NCBI GenBank assembly: GCA_002321305.1
Contig: DCMF01000013.1
Span: 1 to 60,092, forward strand
Direction: 5' to 3'
Source of the DNA: Verrucomicrobia bacterium UBA1629
GTDB taxonomy: Bacteria > Verrucomicrobiota > Kiritimatiellia > RFP12 > UBA1067
Length of the DNA stretch: 60,092 nt
This document shows positions 16,518 to 59,582 of the stretch, in pieces. Under the pieces are notes generated by a model. It worked only from the letters and a program-made list of their open reading frames with translations, was not told where the DNA came from and ran no database searches. Within the stretch, counting starts at the first letter, position 1. The number at the start of each line of letters is the position of its first letter. The translations under genes and the position numbers were made by a program.

Positions 16518-16598
16518 CACGGATTTGAATCTGGGCGAATCCGTGAGATCCGTGGATAGAGAAATGCCTGAATCCGTGTAAATCCGTGAAATCCGTGG
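16484..16598. repeat. inverted arrays of the ATCCGTG word between rpe and coaC
   Basis: cacggat-type words at 16484..16528, then atccgtg words at 16541..16598. The 12-bp pair ctatccacggat (16493) and atccgtggatag (16545) is part of the array. Confidence 0.8.
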
Positions 16599-18016: not shown

Positions 18017-18100
18017 ATGCGGAGTGCAAGATGAAGGACTGATGATGAACAGACACCAGAATTCGCGACTGGCCGCGTGGCCGGACAGAAGGAGCATGGC

Positions 18101-19738
18101 GTGAGGACCGTCGACTGCGACTATCTCGTCGTCGGGTCCGGCATGGCGGGCCTCATGAGCGCGCTTCACCTCGCCGCGTACGGCAAGGTCGCCGTCGTGA
18201 CGAAGGCGCGGCTTCAGGACTGCAACTCGAACTTCGCGCAGGGCGGCATCTGCTGCGTGGCGGATCCGGCGGACACCTTCGACAGGCACGCGCGCGACAC
18301 GATGATCGCCGGCGCGTGGCTCGGCAAGACCGAGGTCGTCCACGAGATCTGCGAGAACGCGCCCGCCGGCATCCAGGACCTCATCGACTGCGGCGTGCGC
18401 TTCGCGAAGAAGGAGGACGGCGCGTGGGACCTGACGCGCGAGGGCGGCCACAGCGCGCGGCGCATCTTCCACGCCGGCGACATCACGGGCGAGAAGTGCG
18501 AGGCGGCGATGATCCGCCGCGTGAAGCGCGAGAAGGCGATCGAGGTGCGCGAGCAGACGATCGTCATCGACCTCGTCATGTCCAACCGCATCGGCCTCAG
18601 GGGCGAGAAGCGCTGCGTGGGCGCGTACGTCATGGACAAGCCGACGGGCGAGATCTACGCGATCCGTTCGCCGAACACGATCCTCGCGACGGGCGGCTGC
18701 GGCAAGGTCTACCTCTACACGTGCAACCCCGACACGGCGACGGGCGACGGCATCGCGCTCGCGTGGCGCGCGGGGGCGAAGATCGAGAACATGGAGTTCA
18801 TCCAGTTCCACCCGACCTGCCTCTACCATCCGCAGGCGAAGCGCTTCCTCATCTCCGAGGCGGTGCGCGGCGAGGGGGCCGTCCTCGTCAACAAGCACGG
18901 CAAGGAATTCATGCGGAAGTACGATCCGCGCGGCTCGCTCGCGCCGCGCGACATCGTGGCGCGCTCGATCGACTCGGAGATGAAGCGCACGGGCGACGAC
19001 TGCATGTTCCTCGACATCCGCAAGAAGGGGGCGGACTACCTGAAGGCGCGCTTCCCGAACATCTACGCGAAGTGCCTCTCCTTCGGCATCGACATGGCGA
19101 AAGACCTCATCCCCGTCGTCCCCGCCGCGCACTACACCTGCGGCGGCATCCAGGCGACGACGGACGGGCGCACGTCGATTCGCGGGCTCTCTGCCGTCGG
19201 CGAGTGCGCCTGCACGGGGCTGCACGGCGCGAACCGCCTCGCGTCCAACTCGCTCATGGAGGCCCTCGTCTGCGCGCGCCTCACCGCCGCCCGCCTCGGC
19301 CCGCATCCGGAAACCTTCCAACCTCCTAAACCTTCCAAACCTTCCGAACCTTCCGAACCTTCCGAACTCGCCGCACCTGCGATTCCCGACTGGAAGATCG
19401 GGAGCGCCGTGCCGCCGGACGAGGCGGTCCTGGTCTCGCACATGTGGGACGAGATCCGCCGCCTGATGTGGGACTACGTGGGCATCGTCCGCACGAACAA
19501 GCGGCTCGCGCGGGCGGCGCACCGGCTGCGGACGCTCCGCCGCGAGATCCACGACTACTACTTCCGCTATCTCGTCACGCCGGACACGCTGGAGCTGCGC
19601 AACCTCGCGGTCTGCGCGGAGCTGATCGTGAAGAGCGCGCAGAAGCGCCACGAGTCGCGCGGCCTCCACTACACCCTCGACTACCCCCGCCAGTCCAGGC
19701 GTCCGAAGCAGACGGTGCTCGATGGCTACCGGGGATGA
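18101..19738 (+). CDS. nadB: L-aspartate oxidase
   Basis: DYLVVGSGMAGL FAD motif, HYTCGG, and GANRLASNSL. GTG 18101 is preferred (SD aaggag 6 nt upstream). GTG 18077 is the ORF-track start. Confidence 0.92.
   Translation: MRTVDCDYLVVGSGMAGLMSALHLAAYGKVAVVTKARLQDCNSNFAQGGICCVADPADTFDRHARDTMIAGAWLGKTEVVHEICENAPAGIQDLIDCGVRFAKKEDGAWDLTREGGHSARRIFHAGDITGEKCEAAMIRRVKREKAIEVREQTIVIDLVMSNRIGLRGEKRCVGAYVMDKPTGEIYAIRSPNTILATGGCGKVYLYTCNPDTATGDGIALAWRAGAKIENMEFIQFHPTCLYHPQAKRFLISEAVRGEGAVLVNKHGKEFMRKYDPRGSLAPRDIVARSIDSEMKRTGDDCMFLDIRKKGADYLKARFPNIYAKCLSFGIDMAKDLIPVVPAAHYTCGGIQATTDGRTSIRGLSAVGECACTGLHGANRLASNSLMEALVCARLTAARLGPHPETFQPPKPSKPSEPSEPSELAAPAIPDWKIGSAVPPDEAVLVSHMWDEIRRLMWDYVGIVRTNKRLARAAHRLRTLRREIHDYYFRYLVTPDTLELRNLAVCAELIVKSAQKRHESRGLHYTLDYPRQSRRPKQTVLDGYRG
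19309..19368 (-). repeat. AACCTTCC (reverse of GGAAGGTT) 9-nt tandem array, in frame in nadB
   Basis: aaaccttcc aaaccttcc gaaccttcc gaaccttcc gaac encodes PKPSKPSEPSEPSE. Confidence 0.85.
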
Positions 19739-39587: not shown

Positions 39588-41891
39588 ATGAAAAACAAGA
39601 AGATGTTTTTGGTGGCCGCCACAGTGATGTGCGCGGCGGGTGTTTTTGCGGCGCATGAGGGCGGTCCCCCGCCCTATCCGAACTTCGGCCTGCCCCGTGT
39701 GGAAGAGATGATGTTCCTCGTCCTGCAGATCGGCCTCATCATCTTTGCGGCCCGCGTGGGCGGCGCACTGGCCTCCTGCCTGAAGCTGCCGTCCATTCTC
39801 GGCGAACTCGCGGCCGGCATCGTGATCGGCCCGTGGGCGCTCGGCGGCATCGGCTTCGGCGACGGGCTGTTCGCGTCCGGCCTCTTCCACGGCGCGGAAC
39901 TGCGCGCGATCGCGAAGGAGACGGGCCACATGTTCGACGCGACGTCGCCCGCGCTCTACGGCATCGCGACGCTCGCGTCGGTGATCCTCCTGTTCCTGTC
40001 CGGCCTCGAGACGAACCTGAAGCTCTTCCTGCGCTACTCGTTCGTCGGCCTCATGGTCGGCCTCGGCGGCGTGATCGTCTCGTTCCTGTTCGGCGACCTC
40101 TGCGCGGTCTACCTGCTGCCGGAGTTTTTCGAGCACTTCGCCTACCTGAAGGGTCTGCCGCTTGCGGAGGCGATGACGAAGGAGGCGCCGCTCTACATGG
40201 GCATCATGTCCACGGCGACGTCGGTCGGCATCACGGCGCGCATCCTCTCCGAGAAGAAGCAGATGGACTCCGAGGAGGGCGTGACGATCATGGCGGGCGC
40301 CGTGATCGACGACGTCCTCGGCCTCATCGTGCTGGCGATCGGCAACGGCATCATCGTCGCGAACCACGCGGCGGCGAAGGCCGGCGGCGCGGCGGGCGCG
40401 ATGGACTGGGGCGCGATCGGCCTCGTCGCCCTGAAGGCGTTCGGCGTCTGGCTCGGCGCGACGGCGATCGGGCTTCTCGCGGCGCGCTACATCGCGAAGT
40501 TCCTGAAGGCGGCGTTCAAGAGTCCCGTCGTCATCGCGACGATGGCCTTCGGCCTCGCGCTCGTCCTCGCGGGCTTCTTCGAGTTCATGGGGCTGGCGAT
40601 GATCATCGGCGCCTACGTGATGGGCCTCGCGCTCTCGCGCACCGACCTGAAGCACCCGATCCAGGAGATGCTGACGCCCGTCTACACGTTCCTCGTGCCC
40701 GTCTTCTTCTGCTCGATGGGCATGATGGTCGACGTCTCGGCGCTCTGCTCGAAGCCGGTCCTGATCTTCGGCGGCATCTACACGGCGCTCGCCGTCGCGG
40801 CGAAGGTGGTCGGCTGCATGATCCCCTCGATGTGCTGCGGCTTCAACCTGCTGGGCGGCCTCCGCATCGGCGCGGGCATGGTGCCGCGCGGCGAAGTCGC
40901 GCTCATCATCGCGGGCCTCGGCCTGTCGAGCGGCTTCCTCACGCAGGAGATCTTCGGCATCGGCATCCTGATGACGCTCGTCACGACGGTCGTCGCGCCG
41001 CCCGCGCTCGTCGGACTGTTCGCGCCGAAGCGCCGGGGCGTGCGGCATCCGAAGCAGAGCCACGACAACTCGCGTCCCGTCGTCTTCGAGCTCTCGTCGC
41101 CCGAAGTCGCGCAGCTCGTCCTGGAGAAGCTGGTCGCGGAGTTCCGCGAGGAGGGCTTCTTCACGTCGCTCCTGTCGAAGGAGGACAGCATCTGGGAGAT
41201 CGCGATGGACAACATGGAGCTTTCGGTCGAGCGTTCGGGGAACGTGATCAAGGTCTCCTGCACGCCGGCGGAGGAGGCGATCGTCATGACGGCGTGGATG
41301 GAGGTCGCGTCCGAGATGAACGACCTCGCGCGCCAGATCGCGAAGCCCATCCGCCGCGAGGAGGTCGACCGGATGCTGGCGGACGGGCCGTCCGCCGCGA
41401 AGCCGCGCCACACGAACGTCGGCCGCCATCTCCAGCACTTCGTGATGCTGCCGAAGTTCAAGGCGGCGTCGAAGAAGGAGGCAATCGAGAAGATGGTCGC
41501 CGAGATCGCGGCGGCGTGTCCGTCGCACGTGAAGGACGTCAAGGAGGCGACGGCGGCGGTTCTCCGGCGCGAGGCGTCGATGCCGACCGGCCTCGACCAC
41601 GGCATCGCCGTGCCGCATGGCCGGTGCGCCGAGGTGGAGGGCATCGTCGGCGCGGTCGCGATCCTCGACAACGCGGGCACGGCGAACGGCTGCATCCCGG
41701 ACTACGAGACGATCGACAACTCGCCGCTGTCGATCATCGTCCTCACGATCGCGAACGACGCGACGCAGACGCCGTACCTGCAGCTGATGAGCTTCATCTC
41801 GAAGGCCCTGCGCGGCGACAACGGCTATCAGAAGCTCGCGCAGTGCACGACGGCGGAGGAGATGCGCAAGTTCTTCAAGAGCGTCAAGTGA
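39588..41891 (+). CDS. cation:proton antiporter (CPA2/Kef-type) fused to a C-terminal PTS EIIA(Ntr/Fru)-type domain
   Basis: About 12 TM segments with [11 protein letters not shown] and GLE motifs. The C-terminal ~150 aa (…KKEAIEKMV…, [22 protein letters not shown]) match the EIIA type 2 pattern, including the phosphorylatable His. Confidence 0.75.
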
Positions 41892-43288
41892 GTCAAGAGA
41901 CCATTGCCGCGATTGCGACCGCGCCCGGCCCTGCCGGGGTCGCGGTCGTGCGCGTTTCGGGGCCGGAGGCGTTCGCCGTCGCCGCGCGCCTGACGCGCGA
42001 TCGCTTCGCGCCCCCGTCTGGGGCTTTGCCGCAGGCGCGCGTCTGCGCCCTGTTCCCAACCTCCCCAACCTCCCACCCCCCCCAACCTCCCAAACCCCCA
42101 AACCTCCCAAACCTTCCAAACCTCGACACCGCCGTCGTTCTCGCCTTTCGCGCGCCCCATTCCTACACGGGCGAAGACGTCGTCGAGTTCCAGTGCCACG
42201 GCGGGGCGGTCACGCCGCGCCGCGTGCTGGAGGCCTGCTTCGCCGCCGGGGCGCGGCTCGCGCGGCGCGGCGAGTTCACCGAGCGCGCGTTCCTGAACGG
42301 CAAGCTCGACTACGACCAGGCGGAAAGCGTCCTCGACCTCATCCAGGCGAAGACCGCGCGCGCGGCGGACGCCGCGCTGGACGGACTCGCCGGACGCCGC
42401 GCGCGCACCAACCGAGACCTTTACGACCGTGCGCTCGCCCTGTCGTCCGAACTGGAGCATGCGCTCGACATCGACGAGGGCGAGTTGCCCGACAGCTTCT
42501 TCGCGTCGCTCCGCACGTCGCTCGCCTCGCTCGACGCGGCGCTTGGCGCGGCGGCGGCGCGCATCCGTGCGGGACGCATCCTGCGCGACGGTGCGCGGGT
42601 CGTCCTTGCGGGGCCGCCGAACGCCGGCAAGAGTTCGCTCTTGAACGCGCTGCTGGAGGAGAGCCGCGCGCTCGTGAGCGACGTGCCCGGCACGACGCGC
42701 GATTCGGTCGAGGCGTGGCTGGACTTGGACGGCTGGCCGATCCGGCTCATCGACACGGCGGGTCTGCGCGAGACGGACGACGCGCTCGAGGCCGCCGGCG
42801 TGAAGCGCGCCGAGAATCTGATCGCCGAAGCCGACGTGATAATCGCTCTGGGCGTTCGGCCTTTGTCCGCTGTCGGCTGTCCTTCGTCCCCCTCACCCCT
42901 CACCTCTCACCCCTCACCTCTCAACTCGCCCTCCCTCCTCCCCATCCACGCCAAGTGCGACCTGGGGCGCGGCGAAGGGCTGAACGTCTCGGCGAAGACG
43001 GGCGAGGGGCTGGGCGAACTCAGGCGGGCGATCGTGGACGCGCTCGAACGGCGGGCGGCGTCCGCCGTGCCGGAAGGGGCGTCCGACGCGCCTGACGACC
43101 GGGCGCTGTCGGCCCTGTGCGCGGCGCGCGCGCACCTCGCGCCCCTCGTGTCCGACGCGCCGCTCGACCTTGTTTTGGCGGGGAACGCGGTGCGGACGGT
43201 CGCCGAATCGCTCGGCGCGCTCGTCGGCGCGACCTACTCGTCCGACCTGCTGGACAGCCTCTTCTCGCGCTTCTGCGTCGGCAAGTGA
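41888..43288 (+). CDS. mnmE: tRNA modification GTPase
   Basis: GTG 41888 (GTGA overlap with the upstream stop). [45 protein letters not shown] and the C-terminal FCVGK. Confidence 0.9.
42051..42124 (-). repeat. AACCTCCC/AACCTTCC word array (reverse of the GGAAGG family), in frame in the mnmE N-terminal domain
   Basis: ttcccaacctccccaacctcccaccccccccaacctcccaaacccccaaacctcccaaaccttccaaacctc encodes [24 protein letters not shown]. Confidence 0.85.
42859..42943 (+). repeat. composite insertion (TGTCC words followed by CCTCACC words), in frame in the mnmE G domain
   Basis: cctttgtccgctgtcggctgtccttcgtcc followed by ccctcacccctcacctctcacccctcacctctcaac encodes [28 protein letters not shown]. Confidence 0.8.
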
Positions 43289-43324
43289 ATTTCACGTGAC
43301 CGCTTGCGGGAATCCATGGGGATG

Positions 43325-43333
43325 TGGTATAAT
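43325..43333 (+). promoter_or_regulatory. extended -10 promoter (TGgTATAAT), leaderless spacing, head of the pseudopilin operon
   Basis: tggtataat ends 9 nt before ATG 43343. Confidence 0.6.
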
Positions 43334-43342
43334 GCCCCAAGA

Positions 43343-44536
43343 ATGAAAAAAGGATTTACACTCGTCGAGCTGCTCATCGTCGTCGTCGTGATCGTCACGC
43401 TGATGACGATTTCATTTCGCATTACGGGAGCGGGGGGCGATGCCGGGGCGCGCAACGCGACTGTCAACCGCATGCAGCGCCTTGAAAACTGCCTCTCCGG
43501 CTACTATGCGGCCTACGGGTGCTACCCGCCCGTCCGCCTGCACGGCAGCCGCGACTACATGATCGACGTCGATGGGCACGGCATCCAGCAGGTCGGCACG
43601 AGGAGCCTGTCGGGGCTGAAGGGCCAAGGCTCGTCTGCGGGCAGCGTGTCGCGGGCGACGGAAATCAGCTGGGAGCGCGTGGAGGCGGCCTGCAAGTCCC
43701 AGCCCATCGGCATGGCCTATCCGTTTACGAAGTCGGGCATTGCGGACTACATCAAGAAGGTTTCGGACATGCTGATCAAGCGGTCGCAGTCAGACGATCC
43801 GAAAGACAAGGAGTTCAAGGAGAACCCGGCGCTGGCCAAGGGCTTCCGCGCGATCACGGACGAAGGCATGCTGTCGTCGAAGCGCGACGACGAGGATTGG
43901 ACGGATGTGCAGATCTTCAAGTTCGGCGTCCTCAGCTATCTGCTGCCGCGTTATCTCATCATGCTCGGCGGCGAGTCGAACATGGATTCGCTCTACGAGA
44001 ACCAGAAGTCGTGGAAGGCCAACAACCGGTATCCCTGCCGCTTCGAGGACGGCGTGGCGTATTCGGATTGGGGTTCCGTAAACGACGACGTGCGGCGCTA
44101 TCGGTGGAAGATCGCCGCCCTGTCGTCGCAGGCCGTCTGCGCGCGCTGGCTGCCGAATCTCGAAAGGTCGCTTCGCATGCAGTATCCGTTCGAGGTCTAC
44201 GGCGTCCAGTTGCAGGACCCTGACAACTCGTTTTCGAACATCTCGGCCAACAATCCGCATCCGGTGCTGTATTCGACCGAGTCGCAGGGCGGCAAGGGCA
44301 GCAACAGCGGCGACCAGTATGTCCTGGACGAGATGACGGTCGTGGACGGCTGGAAGAACGAGTTCTACTACTATTCGCCGCCGCCGCACCAGAGCTACAT
44401 CCTCTGGAGCGCGGGCAAGAACGGAAAGACCTTCCCCCAGTGGGTGTCGGACGAGGAGATCCGCAAGCTCACGACCGCCGACCAGGCGACGGTGATGGAA
44501 TGGAAAGGCGACGATATCGTCAAGATGAGCCATTGA
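43343..44536 (+). CDS. prepilin-type N-terminal cleavage/methylation domain protein (large GspG-like pseudopilin)
   Basis: MKKG-FTLVELLIVVVVI class III signal. GspG-like C-terminal pattern DGWKNEFYYY...ILWSAGKNGK. Confidence 0.8.
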   Translation: MKKGFTLVELLIVVVVIVTLMTISFRITGAGGDAGARNATVNRMQRLENCLSGYYAAYGCYPPVRLHGSRDYMIDVDGHGIQQVGTRSLSGLKGQGSSAGSVSRATEISWERVEAACKSQPIGMAYPFTKSGIADYIKKVSDMLIKRSQSDDPKDKEFKENPALAKGFRAITDEGMLSSKRDDEDWTDVQIFKFGVLSYLLPRYLIMLGGESNMDSLYENQKSWKANNRYPCRFEDGVAYSDWGSVNDDVRRYRWKIAALSSQAVCARWLPNLERSLRMQYPFEVYGVQLQDPDNSFSNISANNPHPVLYSTESQGGKGSNSGDQYVLDEMTVVDGWKNEFYYYSPPPHQSYILWSAGKNGKTFPQWVSDEEIRKLTTADQATVMEWKGDDIVKMSH

Positions 44537-44622
44537 GAAATAATCGAATGAACGAATAATCGAATGAACGAATGAACGAATAATCGAATGGTCGAATGGC
44601 CGAATGAACGAATGATCGAATT
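44536..44622 (+). repeat. CGAATG octamer array (left arm)
   Basis: gagaaataatcgaatg aacgaata atcgaatg aacgaatg aacgaata atcgaatg gtcgaatg gccgaatg aacgaatg atcgaat, with ~8-nt period. Confidence 0.9.
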
Positions 44623-44640
44623 TTGAAGGAGGTTTAGAAT

Positions 44641-45345
44641 ATGAATGATTGCAAGAGACAGGGAAACGAGAGAATGTGTGCGGAAAACCATGATTCGCCG
44701 ATTCGATCATTCGACAACTCGATTATTTCCCGCATTTCCCGACCTGGCTTTACCCTCATCGAGATGCTGGTGGTTCTCGGCATCCTCGCGGTGCTGATCG
44801 GCGCCAGCCTGGCGGCGTTCACGTCATCGACGAAAAAGGCCCAGAAGGCGAAGGGCCAGGAGCTCGTGCACAACGTGGCCACCGCCCTTGAGAAGATCTA
44901 TCAGGAGGAAGGGTCGTGGCCTCGCCGGATTCTCACCGGCAGCAACAACGAAAACGGCATTGACGAGAAGATCGCCTATACGATTGCCAAGCACAACGGC
45001 CTCTCGCTTTCGTATGACGATACCAAGAAGGAGACGACGGCCCTCGACCAGTGCGGCGTCGTCTCGCCCTGGGCGCAGGACGTGATTCGCCGCAAGAAGG
45101 GACAGGGCGTGAGCGAGGGAACGAAGGTCCCGTCCGGCGGCACGATCAAGACGCATCGCTTGCGCTACGCCGTCGATACGGACGGGCGCGGCTTCGTGAC
45201 GGCGAACGTCGAGGGCGAGTCCGTCACGATTCGCGGGTCGGTCGCGGTCTGGTGCGCCGGCTACGACGGCAAGTTCGAGAAGTACAAGGACGGCCTCCGC
45301 AAGGACGACATCTACAGCTGGGGCCGGGAACAGGTCAAGGAATAG
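44641..45345 (+). CDS. prepilin-type N-terminal cleavage/methylation domain protein with a long leader
   Basis: SD gaaggagg upstream of ATG 44641. The RPG-FTLIEMLVVLGILAVLIG motif starts only at residue 36. The leader contains a repeat-encoded SPIRSFDNSIIS. C-terminal WCAGYDGKF. Confidence 0.75.
   Translation: MNDCKRQGNERMCAENHDSPIRSFDNSIISRISRPGFTLIEMLVVLGILAVLIGASLAAFTSSTKKAQKAKGQELVHNVATALEKIYQEEGSWPRRILTGSNNENGIDEKIAYTIAKHNGLSLSYDDTKKETTALDQCGVVSPWAQDVIRRKKGQGVSEGTKVPSGGTIKTHRLRYAVDTDGRGFVTANVEGESVTIRGSVAVWCAGYDGKFEKYKDGLRKDDIYSWGREQVKE
44691..44733 (-). repeat. CATTCG array (right arm, inverse of 44536..44622) inside the pseudopilin leader codons
   Basis: tgattcgccgattcgatcattcgacaactcgattatttcccgc. 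Pairs 44700..44713 with 44607..44620 and 44719..44732 with 44537..44550 (imperfect). Confidence 0.85.
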
Positions 45346-48002: not shown

Positions 48003-48460
48003 TGAGGCGGGCGTTTACCCTGTTGGAGCTTCTTGTCGTGATCGCGATGATCGCGGTTCTCGTCGGTGCGGTTGGGTCGAGCATGGGCCAGGCGCGGCGG
48101 CGCGCGAAGATCGCCAAGGCGACGCAGGACGCGAAGGAGATCACGAACGCGATTCTCGGCTTCCGCAACTATGCCAAGAACCGTTCGCTGGTGGACTATG
48201 ACACCGGCGGCTGGAAAGACGCGACCGAGGGCAACCTCGGCCTGATTCTCGGCAACGAGAAGTCCGAAAGCGGCGATGACGTGCCAGTCCTCTACAATGC
48301 CCAGCTGCGCGGCGGAAAGGTCGTCGATCCGTGGGGACAGACGTACAGGTTTTGCATCCGCAAGTTGAATGGCGAGAGCGAGACGTCGGGATCGACCACG
48401 TTCACGCGCGCCCCCAACCTGCCCAACTTCTACCGGCTGACGGACGAGGAGCGTCAATGA
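48002..48460 (+). CDS. GspG-like major pseudopilin
   Basis: MRRA-FTLLELLVVIAMIAVLVG, AKATQDAKEI, and VVDPWGQTYRF. Confidence 0.8.
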   Translation: MRRAFTLLELLVVIAMIAVLVGAVGSSMGQARRRAKIAKATQDAKEITNAILGFRNYAKNRSLVDYDTGGWKDATEGNLGLILGNEKSESGDDVPVLYNAQLRGGKVVDPWGQTYRFCIRKLNGESETSGSTTFTRAPNLPNFYRLTDEERQ

Positions 48461-51400
48461 GAAAAGGTTCTGCACTGCTGATCGTGCTTGGTCTTCTGTC
48501 GTTCATGGTGGTTTCCGCCGTGAGTTTCTCGATTTACATGCGCCAGAGCCGACTGCCGTCGAGCTACCTTCGGCGCAACATCGCGGCGCGCTATCTCGTG
48601 CGCGCCGCGCTCGCGCGGGCGATCGACGAGCTGGACGGGGCCTACAACGACGACGAGAACTGGGGCAAGTACGAGATGTCCGAGACGGATGTCCGCAAGG
48701 GCTTCTACGGCATCTACGACGATCCGTATCCGGGCTGTGGCTACAAGCGCGACCCCCAAGCCAACACGGACGGCGACTTCTGGTTCCGCCGCGTGTTCAT
48801 GCCGTTCGGCCCGACGAAGTATGCCGAGGCGACGGTGCCGACGCTGACGCTGGAGGCGCTCGCCTACCTGCCGCCCGCGCTCATCGACGACGTCCGCAAG
48901 TTCTCCCGCTACACGCGCACGGCGGCCTGGCGTTCGCTGCCCTACGAGGCGGGGCGCTATGCCTACACGGCGGTCAACGTCTCCGACCTCTTCGACGTGA
49001 ACCGCCTGCGCGCGGACGCTCCGCGCGACTCCGGCCCAAACCGCATCACGCTTGCGCCGCTCTGTTCGCAGACGGCGGGCGACCCGTTCGACATCAACAC
49101 GGACATGGCGACGACGCTCGACACGCTTCAGCAGAAGTGGTCGTCAAGCGGCTACGACACGCCGTTCGTGTCGCTGGCCGACTTCAACCTGCTCGCGGGA
49201 ACGTCGGGCTTCACGCCGTTCATGAACTACATCGGCAAGACCTCGACGAAGCTGCTGAAGAACGGCGATGCCAACGCCGCGAACGCGCTGTTCATCACGG
49301 ACACGTGGTTTCCGGCCGCGACGTCTGTCGCATCCACGTCAGGCTCGTCAGGTTCGTCCGGCTCGTCGTCGGCGTCCGTCACCTACGACCTCGCCGGCGC
49401 GCACCAGCCGTTCATGAACTTCGACGCGAAGGATTGGCCGTCGGTTCTGGCGAGCCGCAATTCGCAGGATAGCGTCAGCGACATCTTCGAGAAGAACCTG
49501 GGCCTGGGTCAGGTCGCGCTTTACGACTACCTTGACAGCGACCAGCAGCCGACCTCGCTCGCCCTGCCGACGGTGGAGGCCGTGCCGATGGTCACGGGCG
49601 TCAGCTGTCCGGCCATGCTCCAACCCGAAATCGAATCGCGCCCAGAGGGCGAGGTCGTGTTTGAGGTGGAGAAGAAACCGTCCGAAATCGATCCGAGCAA
49701 CCCGGAGGACAAGACGTGGAAGATCAAGCGCTCCTGGTCGAAGCTGACGTTTACGGGCTTTGGCAACCGTGTGCTGACGCAGGTGCTGATGACGTATCCC
49801 TTCAAGCGCATGGAGACGACGGGCCGCATCGGCTCGAATTTCAAGTTGCGCGGTGTCTTGCGCGTCTTCGCCGCGCCGGCGAACATGGGCTGCCGTCCGC
49901 TTGACAGCAACGGCAACCTCTACCCGTCCCAGCAGGCTCCGAACGCCTGGCAGGGCAAGAGCGCCCGGAATGGCGTGGCCTCGTTCTTCAGCGAAGAGGC
50001 GTCATTGGACGCCCTCAACAAGGATGTCACGAAGACGGACGACGCAATTGACGATTCCGTCAGCCTGAAGTTCAACTGCAGGGACATTGACATGCCGATC
50101 ATGTATGTCGTGACGGAGACTTGTGAGAACGGCAGCGGGCCGACGGCGGACGGTTTCGTGAACAACAAGAAGTTTCTTTCTCTCGATGGTCTAGGTTTGA
50201 GCGATTCGACGTTCCGTCCGCTGACGGCCGACGGCGAGGTTGATGCCTCCTGGGAGAACTTGAGAAAAGCCGCCCAGGCCGCCCACAAGTTCGAGGAGAA
50301 ACAGCTGAACGTCGTCACGGATTCATTTGCAGGTTTCACGGGCACGTATAAGCTCTATGCGGCTGTTTGGCTGCAGGTCATGGATGGAAATGGGAACGTC
50401 GTGGACATGGCGCCGGCTTCGTACAAGGACGACATGGAGTTTCTGAATGCAAGCGGATCGGTGCCGCAGGGCGTCATGGCGCGCAAGTGCGGCGACGGGA
50501 CGCCGCTGCTCAGCTTCTGCGCCGACTACGCCGTCACTTTCACGGAGAAGATTGCCGACGACTTGAAGGACTCGGCGTCTTACGGCCAGTGGAAGACGCT
50601 GTACGCAGTCGATCCTCGCTACAACTTCGCGCCGGAGGACTGGTTCGCGAAGAACGGCAATACGGCGGTGTCGAAGAGCGAATGGACGGGGGAGATTCTC
50701 CCGCTGCTCGGGCAGGACGGGCGTGACCGCGACATCTTCATGTTCGTCTCCGACCAGGAGTATCTGCAGTCGATCGGCGAGCTCCAGTTCCTGCCGGTCA
50801 TGGGCCTGATGAACGGGAACGAAAACTTTTTGAGCGGCGACTATTCGCCGGATTTCAACGGAAGCAGCTTTGCGAGCAGGACGAGCGCGAGCGGCGGCAG
50901 CTTTGCCAACGGTGGCCGCTTCTGGCGCACGTACACGGCCTATGACAACGGGGACGGCACGGATCCGATCTACGCCCTGCCATATGGCGGGAATGAGATT
51001 CGCTTCCAGGCGGGCGTCGGCGACTTCAAGGTGAACCCGTATTCGGATGACGATCGCGTCCTTTCCGCCGCGCTTGTGGGAACGCCGTTCGACTACTACG
51101 TGGCCTCGACGAACAACAACCAGCGGCAGGTCGGCGGAAAGAAAAACACGTTCATCGACACCTTGGACTTGGACAAGAGCCTCAGCCAGTGCTCGTTCGG
51201 CGAGGCGCCGCTCGCGAAAATGTCGGCGGACGACCTCCTGTCGATCATGGACAATTTCCGATCCGTCTTTGGCGAGCGGGCGAAGAGTTCGGACGCCGCC
51301 GTCGTCGCCGACTGGATGGGCGGCTTCGACAAGATGGAATGGCAGCGGCTGGAAACGACCCAGAGGAACGATGACAACAAGGCGTTCATGGGCATCGATA

Positions 51401-51759
51401 AACTTGCGGAGGCGGATTCGAGTCCGCTCCATCAGGTTGACCGCAAGTTCCTCTACTCGTTCTGGCGCGAATGCTTCGAGAACCGCCAGCAGCTTTTCCT
51501 CGTGTTCGTGCGCGCCGAGCCGATGTCGACGTCGGGCGGCAGCGTCGGCAAGGCCATGCCGTCCTCGCAGCTGGGCGGGCGGGCCGTGGCGCTGGTCTGG
51601 CGCGATCCTGCGGTGCCGAGCTATCAGTCGGGTGAGCGCAAGACGCGGCAGGCTCTCGCGGACAGTACGGGCGACTCGGTTCGCTCGGACATCAAGGACG
51701 TCAGGGAAGACTGCCCGCCCCATTGTACGCGTGTGCTGTTCTATCATCAGTTTGAGTGA
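48457..51759 (+). CDS. giant GspK-like minor pseudopilin/tip protein (1100 aa)
   Basis: Internal ATG 48457 (ATGA overlap). N-terminus MRKGSALLIVLGLLSFMVVSAVSF resembles GspK (GSALL.VL). The rest has no recognisable motif. Confidence 0.55.
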   Translation: MRKGSALLIVLGLLSFMVVSAVSFSIYMRQSRLPSSYLRRNIAARYLVRAALARAIDELDGAYNDDENWGKYEMSETDVRKGFYGIYDDPYPGCGYKRDPQANTDGDFWFRRVFMPFGPTKYAEATVPTLTLEALAYLPPALIDDVRKFSRYTRTAAWRSLPYEAGRYAYTAVNVSDLFDVNRLRADAPRDSGPNRITLAPLCSQTAGDPFDINTDMATTLDTLQQKWSSSGYDTPFVSLADFNLLAGTSGFTPFMNYIGKTSTKLLKNGDANAANALFITDTWFPAATSVASTSGSSGSSGSSSASVTYDLAGAHQPFMNFDAKDWPSVLASRNSQDSVSDIFEKNLGLGQVALYDYLDSDQQPTSLALPTVEAVPMVTGVSCPAMLQPEIESRPEGEVVFEVEKKPSEIDPSNPEDKTWKIKRSWSKLTFTGFGNRVLTQVLMTYPFKRMETTGRIGSNFKLRGVLRVFAAPANMGCRPLDSNGNLYPSQQAPNAWQGKSARNGVASFFSEEASLDALNKDVTKTDDAIDDSVSLKFNCRDIDMPIMYVVTETCENGSGPTADGFVNNKKFLSLDGLGLSDSTFRPLTADGEVDASWENLRKAAQAAHKFEEKQLNVVTDSFAGFTGTYKLYAAVWLQVMDGNGNVVDMAPASYKDDMEFLNASGSVPQGVMARKCGDGTPLLSFCADYAVTFTEKIADDLKDSASYGQWKTLYAVDPRYNFAPEDWFAKNGNTAVSKSEWTGEILPLLGQDGRDRDIFMFVSDQEYLQSIGELQFLPVMGLMNGNENFLSGDYSPDFNGSSFASRTSASGGSFANGGRFWRTYTAYDNGDGTDPIYALPYGGNEIRFQAGVGDFKVNPYSDDDRVLSAALVGTPFDYYVASTNNNQRQVGGKKNTFIDTLDLDKSLSQCSFGEAPLAKMSADDLLSIMDNFRSVFGERAKSSDAAVVADWMGGFDKMEWQRLETTQRNDDNKAFMGIDKLAEADSSPLHQVDRKFLYSFWRECFENRQQLFLVFVRAEPMSTSGGSVGKAMPSSQLGGRAVALVWRDPAVPSYQSGERKTRQALADSTGDSVRSDIKDVREDCPPHCTRVLFYHQFE

Positions 51760-51764
51760 AGAGT

Positions 51765-51899
51765 GGGAAATAATCGAATGATCGAATGAATGAATAATCG
51801 AATTGTCGAATGATCGAATGGGCGAATGGGAAATAATCGAATGGTCGAATGATCGAATGGTCGAATAATCGTTGAATGGGCGAATTGTGGAAGGATTGA
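51765..51899 (+). repeat. CGAATG octamer array (left arm of the cassette around the 4HB gene)
   Basis: gggaaataatcgaatgatcgaatgaatgaataatcgaattgtcgaatgatcgaatgggcgaatgggaaataatcgaatggtcgaatgatcgaatggtcgaataatcgttgaatgggcgaat... Confidence 0.9.
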
Positions 51900-52307
51900 A
51901 TGGGCGAGTTGAAGATGCGGAGTGTTGAGGATAAATTGGCGTTCAAAAGGAGGCTGGAGAATCGGACTTCTGATTTTGCCGTTGCCGTCTTTCGGATGTT
52001 GGACGCATTGCCGCTTGCCGTTTCATCAAAGGTTATCGCGTTTCGGCTTGGGAAGTCCGCGTCTTCTGTCGGCGCCAATTACCGTGAAGCCAATCGGGCG
52101 GAGTCACCTGACGATTTTAATCACAAAATCGGCATTGTTCTCAAGGAATGCGCCGAATCGCTGTATTGGCTTGAAATGCTCCATCGGTTGTACGCGGAAG
52201 ATTGCGTCTCGCAAGATCTCCTAAAGGAATGTGACGAACTTGTTCGAATTTTTCAAACCATCAGGCGACGTATTCATGACAAACGAAAGGCGAGTAATGA
52301 ACTCTAA
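51900..52307 (+). CDS. four-helix-bundle protein (23S rRNA intervening-sequence protein/S23p family, Avd-like)
   Basis: 135 aa. Family signature ...RLGKSASSVGANYREANRAES..F.HKIGIVLKECAESLYWLEML. Confidence 0.85.
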   Translation: MGELKMRSVEDKLAFKRRLENRTSDFAVAVFRMLDALPLAVSSKVIAFRLGKSASSVGANYREANRAESPDDFNHKIGIVLKECAESLYWLEMLHRLYAEDCVSQDLLKECDELVRIFQTIRRRIHDKRKASNEL

Positions 52308-53379
52308 TTCCATCCCCAATTCAACGATTCGATCATTCGACGACCCGATTATTTCCCCTTCGACGATTCGATCATTCGATCATTCGATTATTTCTCCCGG
52401 CTTCACCCTCATCGAGCTTCTCATCGTCATCGCCATCATCGGCGTCCTGTCCGGCGTTCTGCTCACGAGCTTCTCCGGCGGGACCGAATCGGCGCGCGCG
52501 GCGAAATGCCTCTCGAACATGCGCAACCTTGCGCAGGGCGCAATCAGCGTCGCGTCGAAGAAAGCCTGGTTCCCGTATGCCGGCAGCTACGCCGTCGTCG
52601 GCGCCAACAGCGAGGGGAAGACCGTCTATTCCGAACGTGTCGGCTGGATCAGCTGGCTGTCGAAGAACGACGAGTACGGGACGCGGACGCGCGGACGCTC
52701 GAAGCCGACGAGCTTTGTCAACTGCGACAATCCCGGCGCCTATTGCAGCCCGAGCGGACAGGACGAGGACGGCGATTTCGCGCTCTCCAACGGCGAGCTG
52801 TGGACGGCTGTCGGGCGCGAGCGCGCGGTCTACACGTGCCCGGAGCACGTCCTGCGCGCCGGCAAGAAGAACGTGCGCGTCCGGTGGAGCTACGTGATGA
52901 ACGCCGCCTTTGGCTATGACTTCACGAAGGGAAGCGATGCCGTGGGCACGAGCGACGGCAGCGAAGGCATCCACTTCAGCAGCTCGCGCCTTGACCGCCG
53001 CCTCCTGTTCGCCGAGCTGCCGATCAGCGGTGAGCCTGTGCCTTCGACCGAGATGAGCGCCAAGCAGCAGGATTCCTATTCGGTTGGCGACGGGAATCCG
53101 CTGACGGACTGCGTGCTGCAGTACAAGGCGAACGTCAACGGCAAGGGCTACAATTCCGATTGGAGCGGCGAGGCGGAATCGATCGCCTTCAACCACAAGA
53201 GCGGCAAGCGCTGGTGTGCGCACGTCGTCTTTGCCGACGGGCACACGGAGAAGCTGCTGGCGCCGCGCACGTCCGGCGGGCTTTCGGACGAGCAGCTGAC
53301 GGCTCTGCTCTGCGCGGGCGTGGACGTCGGCTTCGACGGCTCGACCTATTCGCTCATCGACAAGGGCGATGAGAATTGA
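52297..53379 (+). CDS. DUF1559-type prepilin-like protein (H-X9-DG family) with a long leader
   Basis: SPG-FTLIELLIVIAIIGVLSG, AKCLSNMRNLAQ, and C-terminal HVVFADGHTEKL. ATG 52297 gives a 35-aa leader that is encoded largely by the repeat (TIRSFDDPIIS, TIRSFDHSIIS). ATG 52231 or 52276 are also possible. Confidence 0.8.
   Translation: MNSNSIPNSTIRSFDDPIISPSTIRSFDHSIISPGFTLIELLIVIAIIGVLSGVLLTSFSGGTESARAAKCLSNMRNLAQGAISVASKKAWFPYAGSYAVVGANSEGKTVYSERVGWISWLSKNDEYGTRTRGRSKPTSFVNCDNPGAYCSPSGQDEDGDFALSNGELWTAVGRERAVYTCPEHVLRAGKKNVRVRWSYVMNAAFGYDFTKGSDAVGTSDGSEGIHFSSSRLDRRLLFAELPISGEPVPSTEMSAKQQDSYSVGDGNPLTDCVLQYKANVNGKGYNSDWSGEAESIAFNHKSGKRWCAHVVFADGHTEKLLAPRTSGGLSDEQLTALLCAGVDVGFDGSTYSLIDKGDEN
52318..52397 (-). 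repeat. CATTCG array (right arm, inverse of 51765..51899)
   Basis: 52372..52393 (tcattcgatcattcgattattt) is the exact reverse complement of 51768..51789. 52325..52358 pairs imperfectly with 51828..51860. Confidence 0.9.
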
Positions 53380-53404
53380 GGTGCGGGCGGCCTCGTTCTT
53401 TTTC

Positions 53405-54065
53405 GGGGCTTCAGCATGAGAGACGATCCCCGCGCTGGGCGACAGTCGGCTCACCGGACGACAGGCGGCGAAGACGAACGCCTCGCTGCGGGCAGCAGTC
53501 CGCTCCGAGGTTTTTCGCGGGCGCCCGCTGACAGGCCATCACCGAGGTGAATCGCGTACGCATCTTTCGCTTCCGCCCGCAATCACCGAGGCGAACCGGC
53601 GCGTCGCCAGTCCTGTCGGCCCGCGAAAAACTCTTCGCGGCTCTGCCCTCCGCTCGCCGCGCTCGCCTTGCTCGCGGCTTCGCACGTGCGTTCCCTTTGA
53701 AGCCGCCTCATTCAGGGGACGCAGGGAATCGCGAAGCGGCGGCGCAAGCCGCCCGTGGCCCGGAGGAGCCGACAGTCGCGCGAGAGGAGCGCAGGGATCG
53801 CCTGTCGCCTCGGCGGTCTCGCTTGATGAAACGCATTCTGCCGAGGGGAATGTCTTGTCACGTTCAATTGGCTGACGTGTGGCGACAGGTGCGACTCCCG
53901 GAGCGACCCGGATCGAGGCCGCAGGCCGACATAGACGGAGCGCAGCGAAGTCCGTTCGCGCGAGCTGTCGGGCCGACGGGCCAAGACGCGATCTGCCCGC
54001 AGCGAGGCGTTCGTCTTCGCCGACTGTCGCCCGGTGAGAGGATTCGTTTTTCATGCTGAAGCCCC
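53405..54065. mobile_element. ORF-less ~660-bp element with 73-91 nt imperfect terminal inverted repeats (MITE-like or large structured RNA)
   Basis: The left arm 53405..53495 and the reverse complement of the right arm 53993..54065 share identical blocks ggggcttcagcatga, gggcgacagtcgg and cgaagacgaacgcctcgctgcgggcag. Internal hairpins include 53511..53522 with 53618..53629. T-runs flank both ends. Confidence 0.55.
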
Positions 54066-56671: not shown

Positions 56672-56880
56672 CCGTTGTCCGCTGTCCTTTGTCCAACGTC
56701 CCCTGTTTGTCCGCTGTCCTTTGTCCAACGTCCCCTGTTTGTCCGTTGTCTTTTGTCCTTTGTCAGAAAGACCAGAGAGGACAAAGGACGAAGGACAGAG
56801 GACAAAGGCATCAGGGCGGACAGCGGACTGCCGGAACGAAGGACAGCGGACGACGGACAAAGGCATCAGGGCGGACAAGC
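56672..56880. repeat. TGTCC word arrays: 32-bp tandem units followed by the inverse GGACA array (long imperfect hairpin)
   Basis: The unit ttgtccgctgtcctttgtccaacgtcccctgt occurs at 56675..56706 and 56707..56738, with a partial third copy. ggacaaagg/ggacagcgg words then run from 56779 to 56880 in the opposite orientation. Confidence 0.9.
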
Positions 56881-56929: not shown

Positions 56930-57688
56930 ATGAACCCTTCGATTCCTTCAATCATCGGGCATTTTGGCGGCTATCGCAAGATGTTCTCCTTCGGGTGGAC
57001 GTGTCTCGTCTATCATGCGACGACGCTTTTCTGCCGACGCAACTACAATTACAAGAACGACGCCCTCGGCAAGACCGTTGGCCAGATGGTCGGTGCGGCG
57101 CGTTCGGCGCGGCAGAACATTGTCGAGGCCTCGTCGCGCGCGGCGACCTCGAAGGAGCAGGAACTGAGGCAGCTCGATGTCGCCAAGGGGTCGCTGGACG
57201 AATTGGCGGGCGATTTCGAGGCGTTTCTCGTCGATTGCGGCGAAGTGCCGTGGTCGCGGCGTGATCCGCGTTACGCGGCCGTCCGTGCGCTGGAACTTGA
57301 TCCTTTTGAGAAGTCCGATGACCTTGATCACGAATATGGCGCCTATACGCTGCGCATGCGCGCCCGCTGTGCGGCCTGGCTTGAGAGCGAAGACCCGATT
57401 GTGGCCGCGAACGCGATCCTGATCGTGATTCGCCGCGCTTGCGCGCTGCTGATGGGCCAGATGCAGCGCACGGCGGCGGACTTCACGGCCGAAGGGGGCT
57501 TTACCGAACGCTTGAGCGCGGCGCGGCTCGCGGCGCGAGACGCGGCGGTACAGGCGGCGGGTGCGCCGACGTGTCCGAAGTGCGGCAAGCCGATGCGCAA
57601 GATGGTCGCGCGCAAGGGGCGCAATGCCGGCAATGCCTTTTGGAGCTGCACGGGTTATCCTGACTGCAACGGGACGCGCGAGTATTGA
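56930..57688 (+). CDS. four-helix-bundle protein with suffix domain, fused to a topoisomerase-type C4 zinc finger
   Basis: Internal ATG 56930. GGYRKMFSF..., QMVGAARSARQNIVEASSRAATSKEQELRQLDVAKGSLDELAGDFEAFL, and EGGFTERL fit the 4HB plus suffix pattern. The C-terminal CPKCGKPMRKMVARKGRNAGNAFWSCTGYPDCNGT is zf-C4_Topoisom-like. Confidence 0.75.
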   Translation: MNPSIPSIIGHFGGYRKMFSFGWTCLVYHATTLFCRRNYNYKNDALGKTVGQMVGAARSARQNIVEASSRAATSKEQELRQLDVAKGSLDELAGDFEAFLVDCGEVPWSRRDPRYAAVRALELDPFEKSDDLDHEYGAYTLRMRARCAAWLESEDPIVAANAILIVIRRACALLMGQMQRTAADFTAEGGFTERLSAARLAARDAAVQAAGAPTCPKCGKPMRKMVARKGRNAGNAFWSCTGYPDCNGTREY

Positions 57689-57691
57689 TTC

Positions 57692-57768
57692 GTGTCCGTC
57701 TCGTTTGTCCCGCCCCGTCCGTCCTTTGTCCAGTCCCCGTTTGTCCGCTGTCCGCCGTCGGTTGTCCT
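57692..57768 (+). repeat. TGTCC word array downstream of the 4HB-zf gene
   Basis: gtgtccgtctcgtttgtcccgccccgtccgtcctttgtccagtccccgtttgtccgctgtccgccgtcggttgtcc. 57743..57756 is the exact reverse complement of 56815..56828. Confidence 0.9.
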
Positions 57769-59515: not shown

Positions 59516-59550
59516 GAGCGGATCTTCCCTTGTTCTTCGGCCGTTTCCCC

Positions 59551-59582
59551 CGTTTGTCCGCTGTCGTTTGTCCTTTGTCCGC
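59551..59582 (+). repeat. TGTCC word copy downstream of the ATPase gene
   Basis: cgtttgtccgctgtcgtttgtcctttgtccgc. Confidence 0.85.

Follow-up and report, generated by a model that had tools for sequence, protein, structure and literature searches.

A four-helix-bundle gene between inverted arrays of short words in a pseudopilin operon, a candidate intervening-sequence-type cassette outside rRNA

Background

Intervening sequences (IVSs) that carry an open reading frame, the 'S23p' ORF, occur in the 23S rRNA genes of Leptospira, Coxiella, Xanthomonas and Brucella. To our knowledge, no function has been established for the proteins encoded by rRNA IVSs in the roughly 30 years since the early 1990s, and we know of no explanation for the origin and spread of these inserts. 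Two ring-forming proteins offer points of comparison: TRAP, whose ring binds an array of (G/U)AG repeats, and Avd, the accessory protein of diversity-generating retroelements (DGRs), a pentamer that binds nucleic acid within the reverse-transcriptase ribonucleoprotein (8UB7). In the 23S rRNA IVS of Coxiella, 2-4 tandem GACAGAT heptamers, varying in number among strains, lie just 5' of the S23p ORF; the IVS is excised by RNase III and its ORF is decaying (PMC4990558). The family to which such ORFs belong, PF05635, is the Pfam family most commonly linked to DGRs (PMC10053308). Our search of the literature found no paper describing flanks of inverted word arrays for four-helix-bundle (4HB) genes outside rRNA. 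In a CRISPR-association study the names '23S rRNA IVP' and 'GspH' appear in a figure legend only, and their bearing is tangential (PMC10910872).

Results

Architecture of the cassette

The window analysed is a stretch of 60,092 nucleotides from Verrucomicrobia bacterium UBA1629 (contig DCMF01000013.1); the parts of the cassettes and of their operon described below lie on its + strand. A 4HB gene (51900..52307) is enclosed by a left arm (51765..51899) and a right arm (52313..52397), and this cassette stands between a gspK-like giant minor pseudopilin gene (48457..51759) and an H-X9-DG-type pseudopilin gene (52297..53379). The left arm consists of two modules (51765-51827 and 51828-51899), each beginning with GGGAAATAATCGAAT and continuing in CGAATGxx octamers; about 13 octamers form a period-8 array at 51769-51871, which makes part of a purine-rich arm with many stop codons. 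The right arm also has two modules, ending in CGATTATTTCCCC at 52358 and CGATTATTTCTCC at 52397, with an array of period 8/39 at 52319-52394, and all three of its sense frames are open.

A sequence-only reading of this DNA had described arms of roughly 8-nt CGAATG words bounded by a perfect 22-bp inverted repeat, with a second, imperfect pair nested inside. The period-8 arrays of both arms agree with this description; 51768-51789 pairs perfectly with 52372-52393, and the nested pair 51828-51860/52325-52358 matches at 29 of 33 positions. The longest ungapped arms, 51793-51866 and 52319-52392, are 74 nt long and 86% complementary. With at most two mismatches allowed, the window contains 14 matches to the 16-mer AATCGAATGATCGAAT (0.07 expected). 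Every one of them falls at 44.5 kb or 51.8/52.3 kb; those in left arms are on the + strand and those in right arms on the - strand. The cassette termini carry GAAATAATCGAAT and ATTCGATTATTTC repeats. No target-site duplication was noticed at the cassette boundaries, for which there is no true empty site to compare, and no transposase, as an autonomous IS would carry, was found at the cassette; a MITE would be marked by a target-site duplication around its terminal inverted repeats. A CRISPR array was ruled out, as the 8-nt units run head to tail without spacers, in contrast to CRISPR repeats of 23-50 nt with unique spacers.

The 4HB gene and its product

The ORF in the loop encodes 135 amino acids and had been assigned to the 4HB/S23p family by its signature, an assignment sustained by matches to PF05635 (E 1.4e-12, 48.2 bits, cut-off 33.8) and TIGR02436 (E 2e-19, 69.7 bits, cut-off 24). 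In relatives the start corresponds to the second ATG (51915), which by homology is the likelier one. The AF2 model (pLDDT 92) has four helices arranged in an up-down bundle like those of 2RLD and 2GSC; its top Foldseek matches are 2RLD (TMt 0.86), 2GSC (0.81) and Avd 4DWL, and its TM score against the Avd structures 4DWL and 8UB7 is about 0.75. The crystal entries 2RLD, 2GSC and 4DWL contain five chains each, which suggests that the 4HB protein may form a homopentameric ring.

The gene is under purifying selection, with dN/dS of 0.07-0.18 (about 0.1) and saturated dS. A search with its exact sequence retrieved contigs of 0.8-1.4 kb only. Domain searches revealed no nuclease, transposase or recombinase domains in the 4HB proteins, and PADLOC and relaxed Pfam scans of this protein and of a second 4HB protein in the window gave no defence-system, nuclease or HEPN-type match. 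PF05635 and HEPN-like domains may belong to one Pfam clan, a point on which no conclusion here depends.

Operon context and translation of the right arm

The gspK-like gene, with N-terminus MRKGSALLIVLGLL and a weak match to NF037980 (T2SS_GspK), ends in a stop codon (51757-51759) 5 nt ahead of the left arm, and a gspK-like gene likewise precedes the cassette in relatives. The downstream pseudopilin matches TIGR02532 and N_methyl, and its prepilin cleavage motif, GFTLIE, starts at 52399. This gene can start only at the ATG codons 52297 or 52276, both of which fall within the final part of the 4HB coding sequence. The right arm has no start codon and is read in frame from the ATG that overlaps the 4HB stop, giving ..STIRSFDDPIISPSTIRSFDHSIISP and then GFTLIELL; because of this overlap, translation must start within the cassette and traverse the right arm. 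The frame is maintained in 22 of 23 related contigs and, despite a repeat unit of 8 nt, in eight of nine distinct right-arm alleles. Once translated, the right arm makes up a disposable leader peptide for the downstream pseudopilin; the sequence-only reading had likewise taken this arm to be co-opted as a leader. A scan from the gspK-like gene through the 4HB gene to the pseudopilin found neither a promoter-like site nor an intergenic terminator-like site, with one weak terminator-like match (52094-52111) within the 4HB ORF. A terminator-like hairpin with a T-run (53377..53396) directly follows the pseudopilin stop.

Empty hairpin and second 4HB cassette

The matching empty hairpin pointed out in the sequence-only reading is present at 44537-44731 and is built from the CGAATG word family. 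Its left arm (44537..44621) directly follows the TGA of a gspG-like gene (43304..44536), its loop (44622..44692) contains a GGAGG Shine-Dalgarno sequence and an ATG at 44641, and its right arm (44693..44731), read in frame (..PIRSFDNSIISRISRP GFTLIEM), forms the leader of a pseudopilin (44641..45345). This right arm is 90% identical to 52319-52357, and the loop opens with a sequence similar to that found upstream of the 4HB gene (GAATT-TTGAAGGA versus GAATTGTGGAAGGA). Folded alone, the empty hairpin is no better than shuffled sequence (z = +0.4). Empty hairpins are conserved in relatives, where they share each genome's word variants with the 4HB cassette, and two of them in locus L125, 92% identical, adjoin unrelated gene bodies. 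Such gene-less hairpins supply Shine-Dalgarno sequence, ATG and leader to other genes of the operon.

A second cargo-bearing cassette had also been placed at 56.7-57.8 kb; it exists, and its cargo is again a 4HB protein. The gene (56930..57688) encodes a TIGR02436 domain followed by a TIGR04258 suffix domain and a Top1-type C4 zinc ribbon, the last of which may be counted in favour of nucleic-acid binding. Upstream lies a local hairpin (56675..56877) of a TTGTCC-word array (56675-56764) and a GGACAA-word array (56778-56877), and downstream a further TTGTCC-word array (57694..57768) complementary to 56778-56877. Additional copies of the TTGTCC family are found at 59546-59582 and inside mnmE at 42851-42891. 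The identical second 4HB protein was found elsewhere with differing upstream neighbours.

Conservation and co-variation in relatives

Gut and rumen relatives keep the order of gspK-like gene, left array, 4HB gene, right array and pseudopilin, with synonymous sites saturated; position, arms and in-frame right arm are conserved at 63-73% amino-acid identity. The word AATAATCGAAT is unchanged in the window (WIN) and in loci L003, L013 and L025 despite saturated dS; conservation of the words extends beyond neutral saturation. In L105 the left arm reads AACCGAAT and the right arm ATTCGGTT, a concerted compensatory change, and lineage-specific modules are mirrored across both arms; the complementarity of the arms, on which the sequence-only reading had staked its case, is thus both kept and co-varying. 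Words of other lineages are AATCGAAT, AACCGAAT and TTGTCC. Array copy number varies among strains with an identical 4HB protein.

Cassettes with the same words also occupy other sites: the grpE-dnaJ interval in L025 and, in L105, a position ahead of the gspK-like gene instead of behind it. The suggestion that the element is mobile survives for movement over long time scales only. It fails for a recent or freely moving insert, since lineages with saturated synonymous divergence carry both cassette and empty hairpin at unchanged places in the operon. By these comparisons the cassette has long been fixed in a type II secretion-like pseudopilin operon.

4HB loci in other genomes and dispersed arrays

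Eighty loci of one PF05635 subfamily, picked by two peptide patterns, were sampled. Flanking inverted word arrays, defined by an inverted-complementarity score of at least 30, were found for 60 of 73 related 4HB genes, which come from more than 10 phyla and none of which is in rRNA; this threshold was reached by 42 of 2520 pseudo-gene positions and by 12 of 315 other ORFs (about 2% of control positions). Together with the second 4HB gene in the window, this answers the expectation that other 4HB genes should be array-flanked. Repeat periods of 7 and 8 dominate among the arms. The proportion of shared arm 7-mers climbs from 0.7% to 37% with protein identity, cross-phylum pairs included, a correlation that could equally arise if gene and words are transferred and inherited as one unit, without any specificity of binding. 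In 37 loci against 9 it is the left arm that is rich in purines, and the asymmetry of stop codons between arms is not significant (23 versus 17 loci). Motifs of 23S rRNA are absent from all 80 loci.

The CGAATG word family is also dispersed. In metagenomes, 13 of 18 GC-rich contigs hold solo arrays without an inverted partner, and only 3 of 120 dispersed arrays adjoin a 4HB gene of the sampled subfamily; dispersed arrays being mostly solo, the hairpin is not obligatory for the words. Four genes of this window, namely uvrB, mnmE, a GT8 gene and a flavoprotein gene, also contain in-frame arrays. A count of dispersed arrays that start just after a long same-strand ORF was dropped as uninformative, because a stop-rich array closes any open frame in GC-rich DNA.

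RNA folding and arm mismatches

In the minimum-free-energy fold of a 651-nt RNA spanning the cassette the arms are paired (-241 kcal/mol, z = -6), and the opposite strand of this segment folds equally well (z = -6.9). Mismatches between arms in 61 loci show no excess of G:U pairs, no strand bias and no transition excess (85 sense-compatible, 95 antisense-compatible, 361 transversions). Without a G:U excess, the complementarity of the arms could be due to copying at the DNA level, or to the arms being double-stranded DNA sites placed in both orientations, and need not stem from selection on paired RNA; with no strand bias, selection at the RNA level could not be demonstrated. An RNase III cut in the stem would part the pseudopilin start codon from its ORF, so the stem looks repressive, not neutral.

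Discussion

Comparison with described systems

The cassette shares with ORF-bearing rRNA IVSs a PF05635 4HB ORF in the loop of a long inverted-repeat stem, inside a transcription unit, and with the Coxiella IVS in particular short tandem repeats of strain-variable copy number 5' of the ORF (PMC4990558). The claim that an IVS-type architecture resides here in a protein-coding operon is supported by these features. The differences are also clear: IVSs are inserted in helix 25 or 45 of 23S rRNA, whereas the cassette lies between gspK-like and pseudopilin genes, and Rfam at gathering thresholds gave no match in the whole window. One arm of the cassette is a translated leader peptide without its own start codon, the cassette ORF is under strong purifying selection while that of Coxiella decays, and excision by RNase III would decapitate the cassette's downstream ORF. 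The classical 23S rRNA IVS with an ORF appears to be a cassette of this kind that is housed in rRNA.

RAYT/REP elements (REPINs) resemble the cassette in having a single gene between inverted short repeats and more repeat copies elsewhere in the genome, here at 44.5 kb, at 42.85, 56.7, 57.7 and 59.55 kb for the TTGTCC family, and on metagenome contigs. They differ in that the cassette protein is a 4HB protein, with PF05635 as the only family found and no HUH/Y1 transposase motifs, and in that its repeats are tandem arrays of 7-8-nt words, also in frame inside genes, rather than palindromes of 20-40 nt. Avd has the same fold, and crystals of related families contain five chains, but sequence identity is only 12-14%, and neither a reverse transcriptase nor template/variable repeats are present here. 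The parallel with TRAP is a functional analogy only: a ring-shaped homo-oligomer, evenly spaced short repeats in a leader RNA, and alternative stems. There is no homology between TRAP and the 4HB protein, whose binding is putative.

Proposed function and alternative explanations

We regard the locus as one resident example of a widespread cassette class, a PF05635 4HB gene between inverted arrays of 7-8-nt words, and as an IVS-type cassette that resides in mRNA; we place the probability of this reading at about 0.5, and we could not find the class described in the literature. It is supported by the fold and family of the protein, the conserved position, the selection on the gene, the co-variation of the arms, the sharing of words in trans, the generality among 4HB loci, the single transcription unit, the predicted folding, the zinc ribbon of the second 4HB protein and the Coxiella precedent. 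Weighing against it are the arm mismatches with no G:U excess, the equally stable antisense fold, the empty hairpin that by itself folds no better than shuffled sequence, the prevalence of solo arrays, the co-inheritance alternative for the correlation of words with protein, and the restriction of the sample to one PF05635 subfamily. In the operon transcript, the two arms would form an almost perfect duplex about 100 bp long. Like the stems of rRNA IVSs, this duplex may be, with roughly even odds, an RNase III substrate and a ribosome barrier that limits or gates the downstream pseudopilin. Somewhat less assured is the further step, in which the 4HB ring would bind tandem words, one per subunit, in the manner of TRAP, and would control its own cassette as well as the empty hairpins in trans; the form bound may be RNA or DNA.

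The same facts could be read, though we find it unlikely, as those of a selfish DNA element of the RAYT/REP kind, with arrays as its ends and dispersed non-autonomous copies, a 4HB protein aiding spread or maintenance as DNA, and the operon as a tolerated parking site without regulatory role. Gene and words are common to several phyla, same-word cassettes occur in different operons (grpE-dnaJ in L025, before the gspK-like gene in L105), the identical second 4HB protein has different upstream neighbours, L125 has near-identical empty hairpins at two separate sites, words of the family are scattered over many contigs, mostly as solo arrays and in part in frame in the uvrB, mnmE, GT8 and flavoprotein genes, and the mismatches carry no wobble signature, all of which speaks for this reading; many homologues, moreover, come from contigs about 1 kb long, a length to be expected if repeats break assemblies. 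Against it are the want of nuclease, transposase and recombinase domains in the 4HB proteins and of noticed target-site duplications, and the constant positions of cassette and empty hairpins, with frame kept and the protein under strong purifying selection while dS is saturated; the observed bias of orientation relative to transcription is also unexpected for an element acting purely at the DNA level. It is improbable that the stem is simply a structural RNA insulator or processing site, with the 4HB gene as unrelated cargo and the words kept by gene conversion between arms. The long stem is indeed the predicted minimum-free-energy fold, and RNase III cuts rRNA IVS stems whatever the state of their ORF, which decays in Coxiella, but identical words in lineages with saturated dS, tandem 7-8-nt periodicity across many phyla, strong purifying selection on the 4HB gene and partnerless solo arrays would all be left unexplained.

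The variation of copy number among strains with an identical 4HB protein also brings to mind phase-variation tracts, in which gain or loss of one 8-nt word would shift the pseudopilin out of frame and off, and L014 lacks one word and has lost the in-frame ATG. Since eight of nine alleles are in frame, this reading was downgraded and is very improbable: length differences are multiples of 3, the same arrays go untranslated where they form left arms or lie in the grpE-dnaJ spacer, and the lone out-of-frame case could be an assembly error. That the 4HB gene is an Avd, as remnant or accessory of a DGR, is suggested by its fold and by the prevalence of PF05635 among DGR-linked families, yet is scarcely credible and was rejected: none of the genes called within about 5 kb on either side matches a reverse transcriptase, no template/variable pair is present, every long repeat belonging to the word arrays, and syntenic loci in relatives also have no reverse transcriptase.

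Implications

The cassette reading can be taken further, to a generalisation that we regard as doubtful. PF05635 4HB proteins would be sequence-specific ring binders of 7-8-nt words in a two-part system, a master cassette with many gene-less arrays and hairpins that act as portable start-of-gene or processing modules and spread even into housekeeping proteins; the 23S rRNA IVS and Avd would be specialised offshoots. The gene-plus-inverted-repeat unit occurs mostly outside rRNA and its word co-varies with its protein, so that the function of IVS proteins becomes testable with a pair of protein and recognition word. The proposed mechanism may connect IVS proteins with the Avd of DGRs, and the cassettes may be an unrecognised source of scattered short-repeat arrays in gut bacteria of the PVC group, some of these arrays being inserted in frame in essential genes.

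Structure and setting of the cassette

The cassette comprises a left arm (51765..51899), a gene of the four-helix-bundle (4HB) family PF05635/TIGR02436 (51900..52307) and a right arm (52313..52397), and its sequence features are all as the sequence-only reading described them. A perfect 22-bp inverted repeat joins 51768-51789 to 52372-52393, 29 of 33 positions match in the nested inverted pair, and the longest ungapped arms are 74 nt in length and 86% complementary. Both arrays have a period of 8, the left one containing about 13 CGAATGxx units. A two-word probe with at most 2 mismatches matched 14 times in the window (0.07 expected); all 14 matches are located at 44.5 kb and 51.8/52.3 kb, on the plus strand in left arms and on the minus strand in right arms.

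The gene in the loop is matched by PF05635/TIGR02436; in its homologues the start codon corresponds to the second ATG, at 51915. The predicted structure is confident (pLDDT 92), and the model most closely resembles 2RLD and 2GSC, followed by Avd, the accessory protein of diversity-generating retroelements. The dN/dS of 0.07-0.18, together with synonymous sites saturated between lineages, indicates that the protein is functional and that the cassette is long-standing at the pseudopilin-operon site.

The type II secretion-like pseudopilin operon spans 43.3-53.4 kb and contains a gspG-like gene, six pseudopilins, a gspK-like gene of 1100 amino acids, the 4HB gene and an H-X9-DG-type pseudopilin. 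The left arm starts 5 nt after the gspK-like stop codon. From the gspK-like gene to the last pseudopilin, a promoter/terminator scan identified no promoter-like and no intergenic terminator-like sites; one weak terminator-like match lies within the 4HB ORF, and a terminator-like hairpin is found 3' of the last pseudopilin. No start codon is present between the right arm and the GFTLIE cleavage motif of the pseudopilin. Its only ATGs, at 52297 and 52276, lie within the 3' end of the 4HB gene, and translation therefore runs in frame through the right arm, giving a leader of about 33 amino acids. The proposal that this arm has been co-opted as the leader of the next gene is thus borne out, and the leader is a disposable one. 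Leaders of five other pseudopilins of the operon have only 4-7 amino acids, and the only further long leader is that of the gene following the gene-less (empty) hairpin at 44.5 kb.

Conservation and positions in related genomes

MAGs from the rumen and gut, bearing the labels Lentisphaerae, Kiritimatiellae or Verrucomicrobia, provide the closest genomes. In three lineages, whose 4HB proteins are 65-73% identical to that of the window, the order gspK-like gene, left array, 4HB gene, right array and pseudopilin is kept. In 22 of 23 contigs the reading frame of the pseudopilin is maintained across the right arm, and eight of the nine distinct right-arm alleles keep it; with a unit of 8 nt, chance alone would give one in three. 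Word copy number varies among strains sharing an identical 4HB protein. Between lineages, neither the word AATAATCGAAT nor the terminal GAAATAATCGAAT / ATTCGATTATTTC has changed, despite the saturation of synonymous sites. Changes in the arms are paired, so that where one arm differs the other does also, as in the related loci L105 (left AACCGAAT, right ATTCGGTT) and L013 (left CGAAACGGGGGAAGTG, right CACTCCCCCGTTTCG). Compared with L013, the right arm of another related locus, L014 (3384-3460), is one 8-nt word shorter and the in-frame ATG of the pseudopilin is lost; either a naturally occurring 'off' allele or a misassembly of the repeat would account for this.

Movement of the cassette is seen only over long evolutionary times. 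In L105 and the related contig L125 it precedes the gspK-like gene, of which the right arm forms an in-frame N-terminal extension. Between grpE and dnaJ, L025 carries a cassette with the same words; the stop codon of grpE falls within the terminal AAATAA, and dnaJ has its own ATG. In L107 (4663-4986 and 6269-6420) the cassette has unrelated surroundings, crowded with word arrays, with another PF05635 gene and a transposase gene of the Y1 (IS200-like) type at most 3 kb away.

Empty hairpins

Gene-less copies of the hairpin are 5' modules of neighbouring genes. In that of the window (44537-44731), a left array is followed by a loop containing GGAGG and an ATG, and then by a right array that is translated as leader; the hairpin's position is conserved in the three lineages examined. 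Empty hairpin and 4HB cassette of the same genome are more like each other than like their orthologues, and share word variants absent from the other genomes, for example ATCGAAAC in the related locus L121. In L125 an empty hairpin occupies the position of the window's 4HB cassette. That hairpin and a second gene-less one 8.8 kb away (4874-5040 and 13674-13840) occupy the 5' ends of two different pseudopilin genes of one operon. The two hairpins are 92% identical (146/158), although the DNA of the gene bodies beside them is unrelated, which marks the hairpin as a discrete unit, about 135 nt long and providing a Shine-Dalgarno sequence, start codon and leader.

Inverted arrays across the 4HB family

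Species-representative genomes scanned with a 4HB alignment yielded 80 loci from more than 10 phyla, a sample that represents one PF05635 subfamily and in which MAG taxonomic labels may be wrong. None of the 80 loci contains 23S rRNA motifs. The 350 nt 5' of each 4HB gene were aligned to the reverse complement of the 350 nt 3', with a cut-off score of at least 30. This score was reached at 60 of 73 loci, against 42 of 2520 pseudo-gene positions and 12 of 315 other ORFs of the same loci, in agreement with the sequence-only expectation of flanking inverted arrays at other 4HB genes. In the 27 high-scoring loci examined, most arms are built as arrays of short words (such as CAATGGT, ATTGCAA, CATTTGT, GGAATATGG and AGTGAAG) and in most cases start 0-60 nt from the start and stop codons; the dominant word periods are 7 and 8. 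Sharing of arm 7-mers scales with 4HB protein identity, from 37% at 70% identity or more to 0.7% below 35%, pairs assigned to different phyla included. The purine-rich arm is the left one in 37 loci versus 9. The inverted-array layout is the usual one in the part of the family that was sampled. The 23S intervening sequence (IVS) of Coxiella, which is excised by RNase III, carries strain-variable tandem heptamers 5' of an S23p ORF (PMC4990558), and resembles the cassette in having tandem short words of variable copy number before a 4HB-family ORF.

Other word families and hairpins in the window

The suggested second cargo-bearing cassette of a different word family is also present: a 4HB gene (56930..57688) with a suffix domain and a Top1-type zinc ribbon is flanked, as are its relatives, by hairpin units of GGACA/TGTCC words. 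About 200 nt 5' of the 4HB2-type gene in the related loci L113-L119, GGTTTCGA/GGTTTCTA arrays upstream and CGTGTATTT repeats downstream accompany GGACA/TGTCC hairpins, so that several families can stack at one site. Just 3' of the second cassette, an ATPase_2-family gene (58058-59515) has PDC-S27, a candidate defence family of PADLOC, as a match (E 1.6e-72); similar ATPase or PDDEXK genes lie downstream of 4HB2-type genes in L103, L104 and L113-L115.

The window's genome appears to be seeded with word arrays. In-frame arrays of 7-10-nt words are located at linkers or between Pfam domains of housekeeping genes: uvrB (3233-3296), a GT8 glycosyltransferase gene (3423..4559; arrays 3643-3675 and 3926-3953), a flavoprotein gene (18077..19738; 19311-19378) and mnmE (41891..43288; 42054-42124 and 42851-42923). 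Words of the TTGTCC family, found on either side of the second 4HB gene, recur at 59.55 kb and in frame within mnmE (42851-42891); the arrays of uvrB, the GT8 gene and the flavoprotein gene are of other word families. Words of the CACGGATT / AATCCGTG type form a local hairpin (16494-16597) in the spacer that separates the ribulose-phosphate 3-epimerase gene from the next one; they recur inside the GT8 gene 12.5 kb away, the two sites forming an inverted repeat, and the window has no 4HB gene for this family. A 19-nt two-word probe retrieved at least 120 metagenome contigs, 25 of them GC-rich like the window and eight from one assembly. Most carry solo arrays, and only 3 arrays adjoin a 4HB gene of the window's subfamily.

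A third hairpin-bounded segment (53413-54065) has 46-nt arms (53450-53495 / 53993-54038) that are 96% complementary and not word-built, with complementarity continuing outward (GCTTCAGCATGA / TCATGCTGAAGC). No ORF is supported in the loop, which is GC-rich and about 500 nt long, and the right arm overlaps the ATG (54053) of an 845-aa gene. At 28866-29018, a 27-nt tandem repeat (5 copies, 87% identity, CGCGCCCCCGTTATCGAAAGCCCCAGC), unrelated to the word arrays, lies within a long ORF region.

Proposed mode of action

In the predicted fold of the 651-nt sense RNA the arms pair (-241 kcal/mol, z = -6), and the antisense strand behaves likewise. Arm mismatches at 61 loci comprise 85 compatible with G:U pairs in the sense strand, 95 in the antisense strand and 361 transversions. 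As these loci bear no G:U wobble signature, the complementarity behaves like one word written in both orientations. The main rival explanation is a selfish DNA element of the REP/RAYT type; it is compatible with the reading preferred here, in which the paired arms would gate the pseudopilin under control of the 4HB protein. The orientation bias relative to the gene and the in-frame right arm argue that transcription and translation matter for the cassette. The literature searched, whose coverage is incomplete, contained no account of inverted word arrays bracketing 4HB genes that lie outside rRNA, and this is no proof of novelty.

The cassette is a conserved, selected IVS-type unit residing in mRNA. 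Its co-transcribed arms would form a duplex of about 100 bp that attracts RNase III and impedes ribosomes. Since the start codon of the pseudopilin is inside the loop, the duplex would not be neutral for pseudopilin expression but would gate it. The 4HB protein, as a putative oligomer, may recognise the tandem words and thereby control this effect at its own cassette as well as at the empty hairpins.
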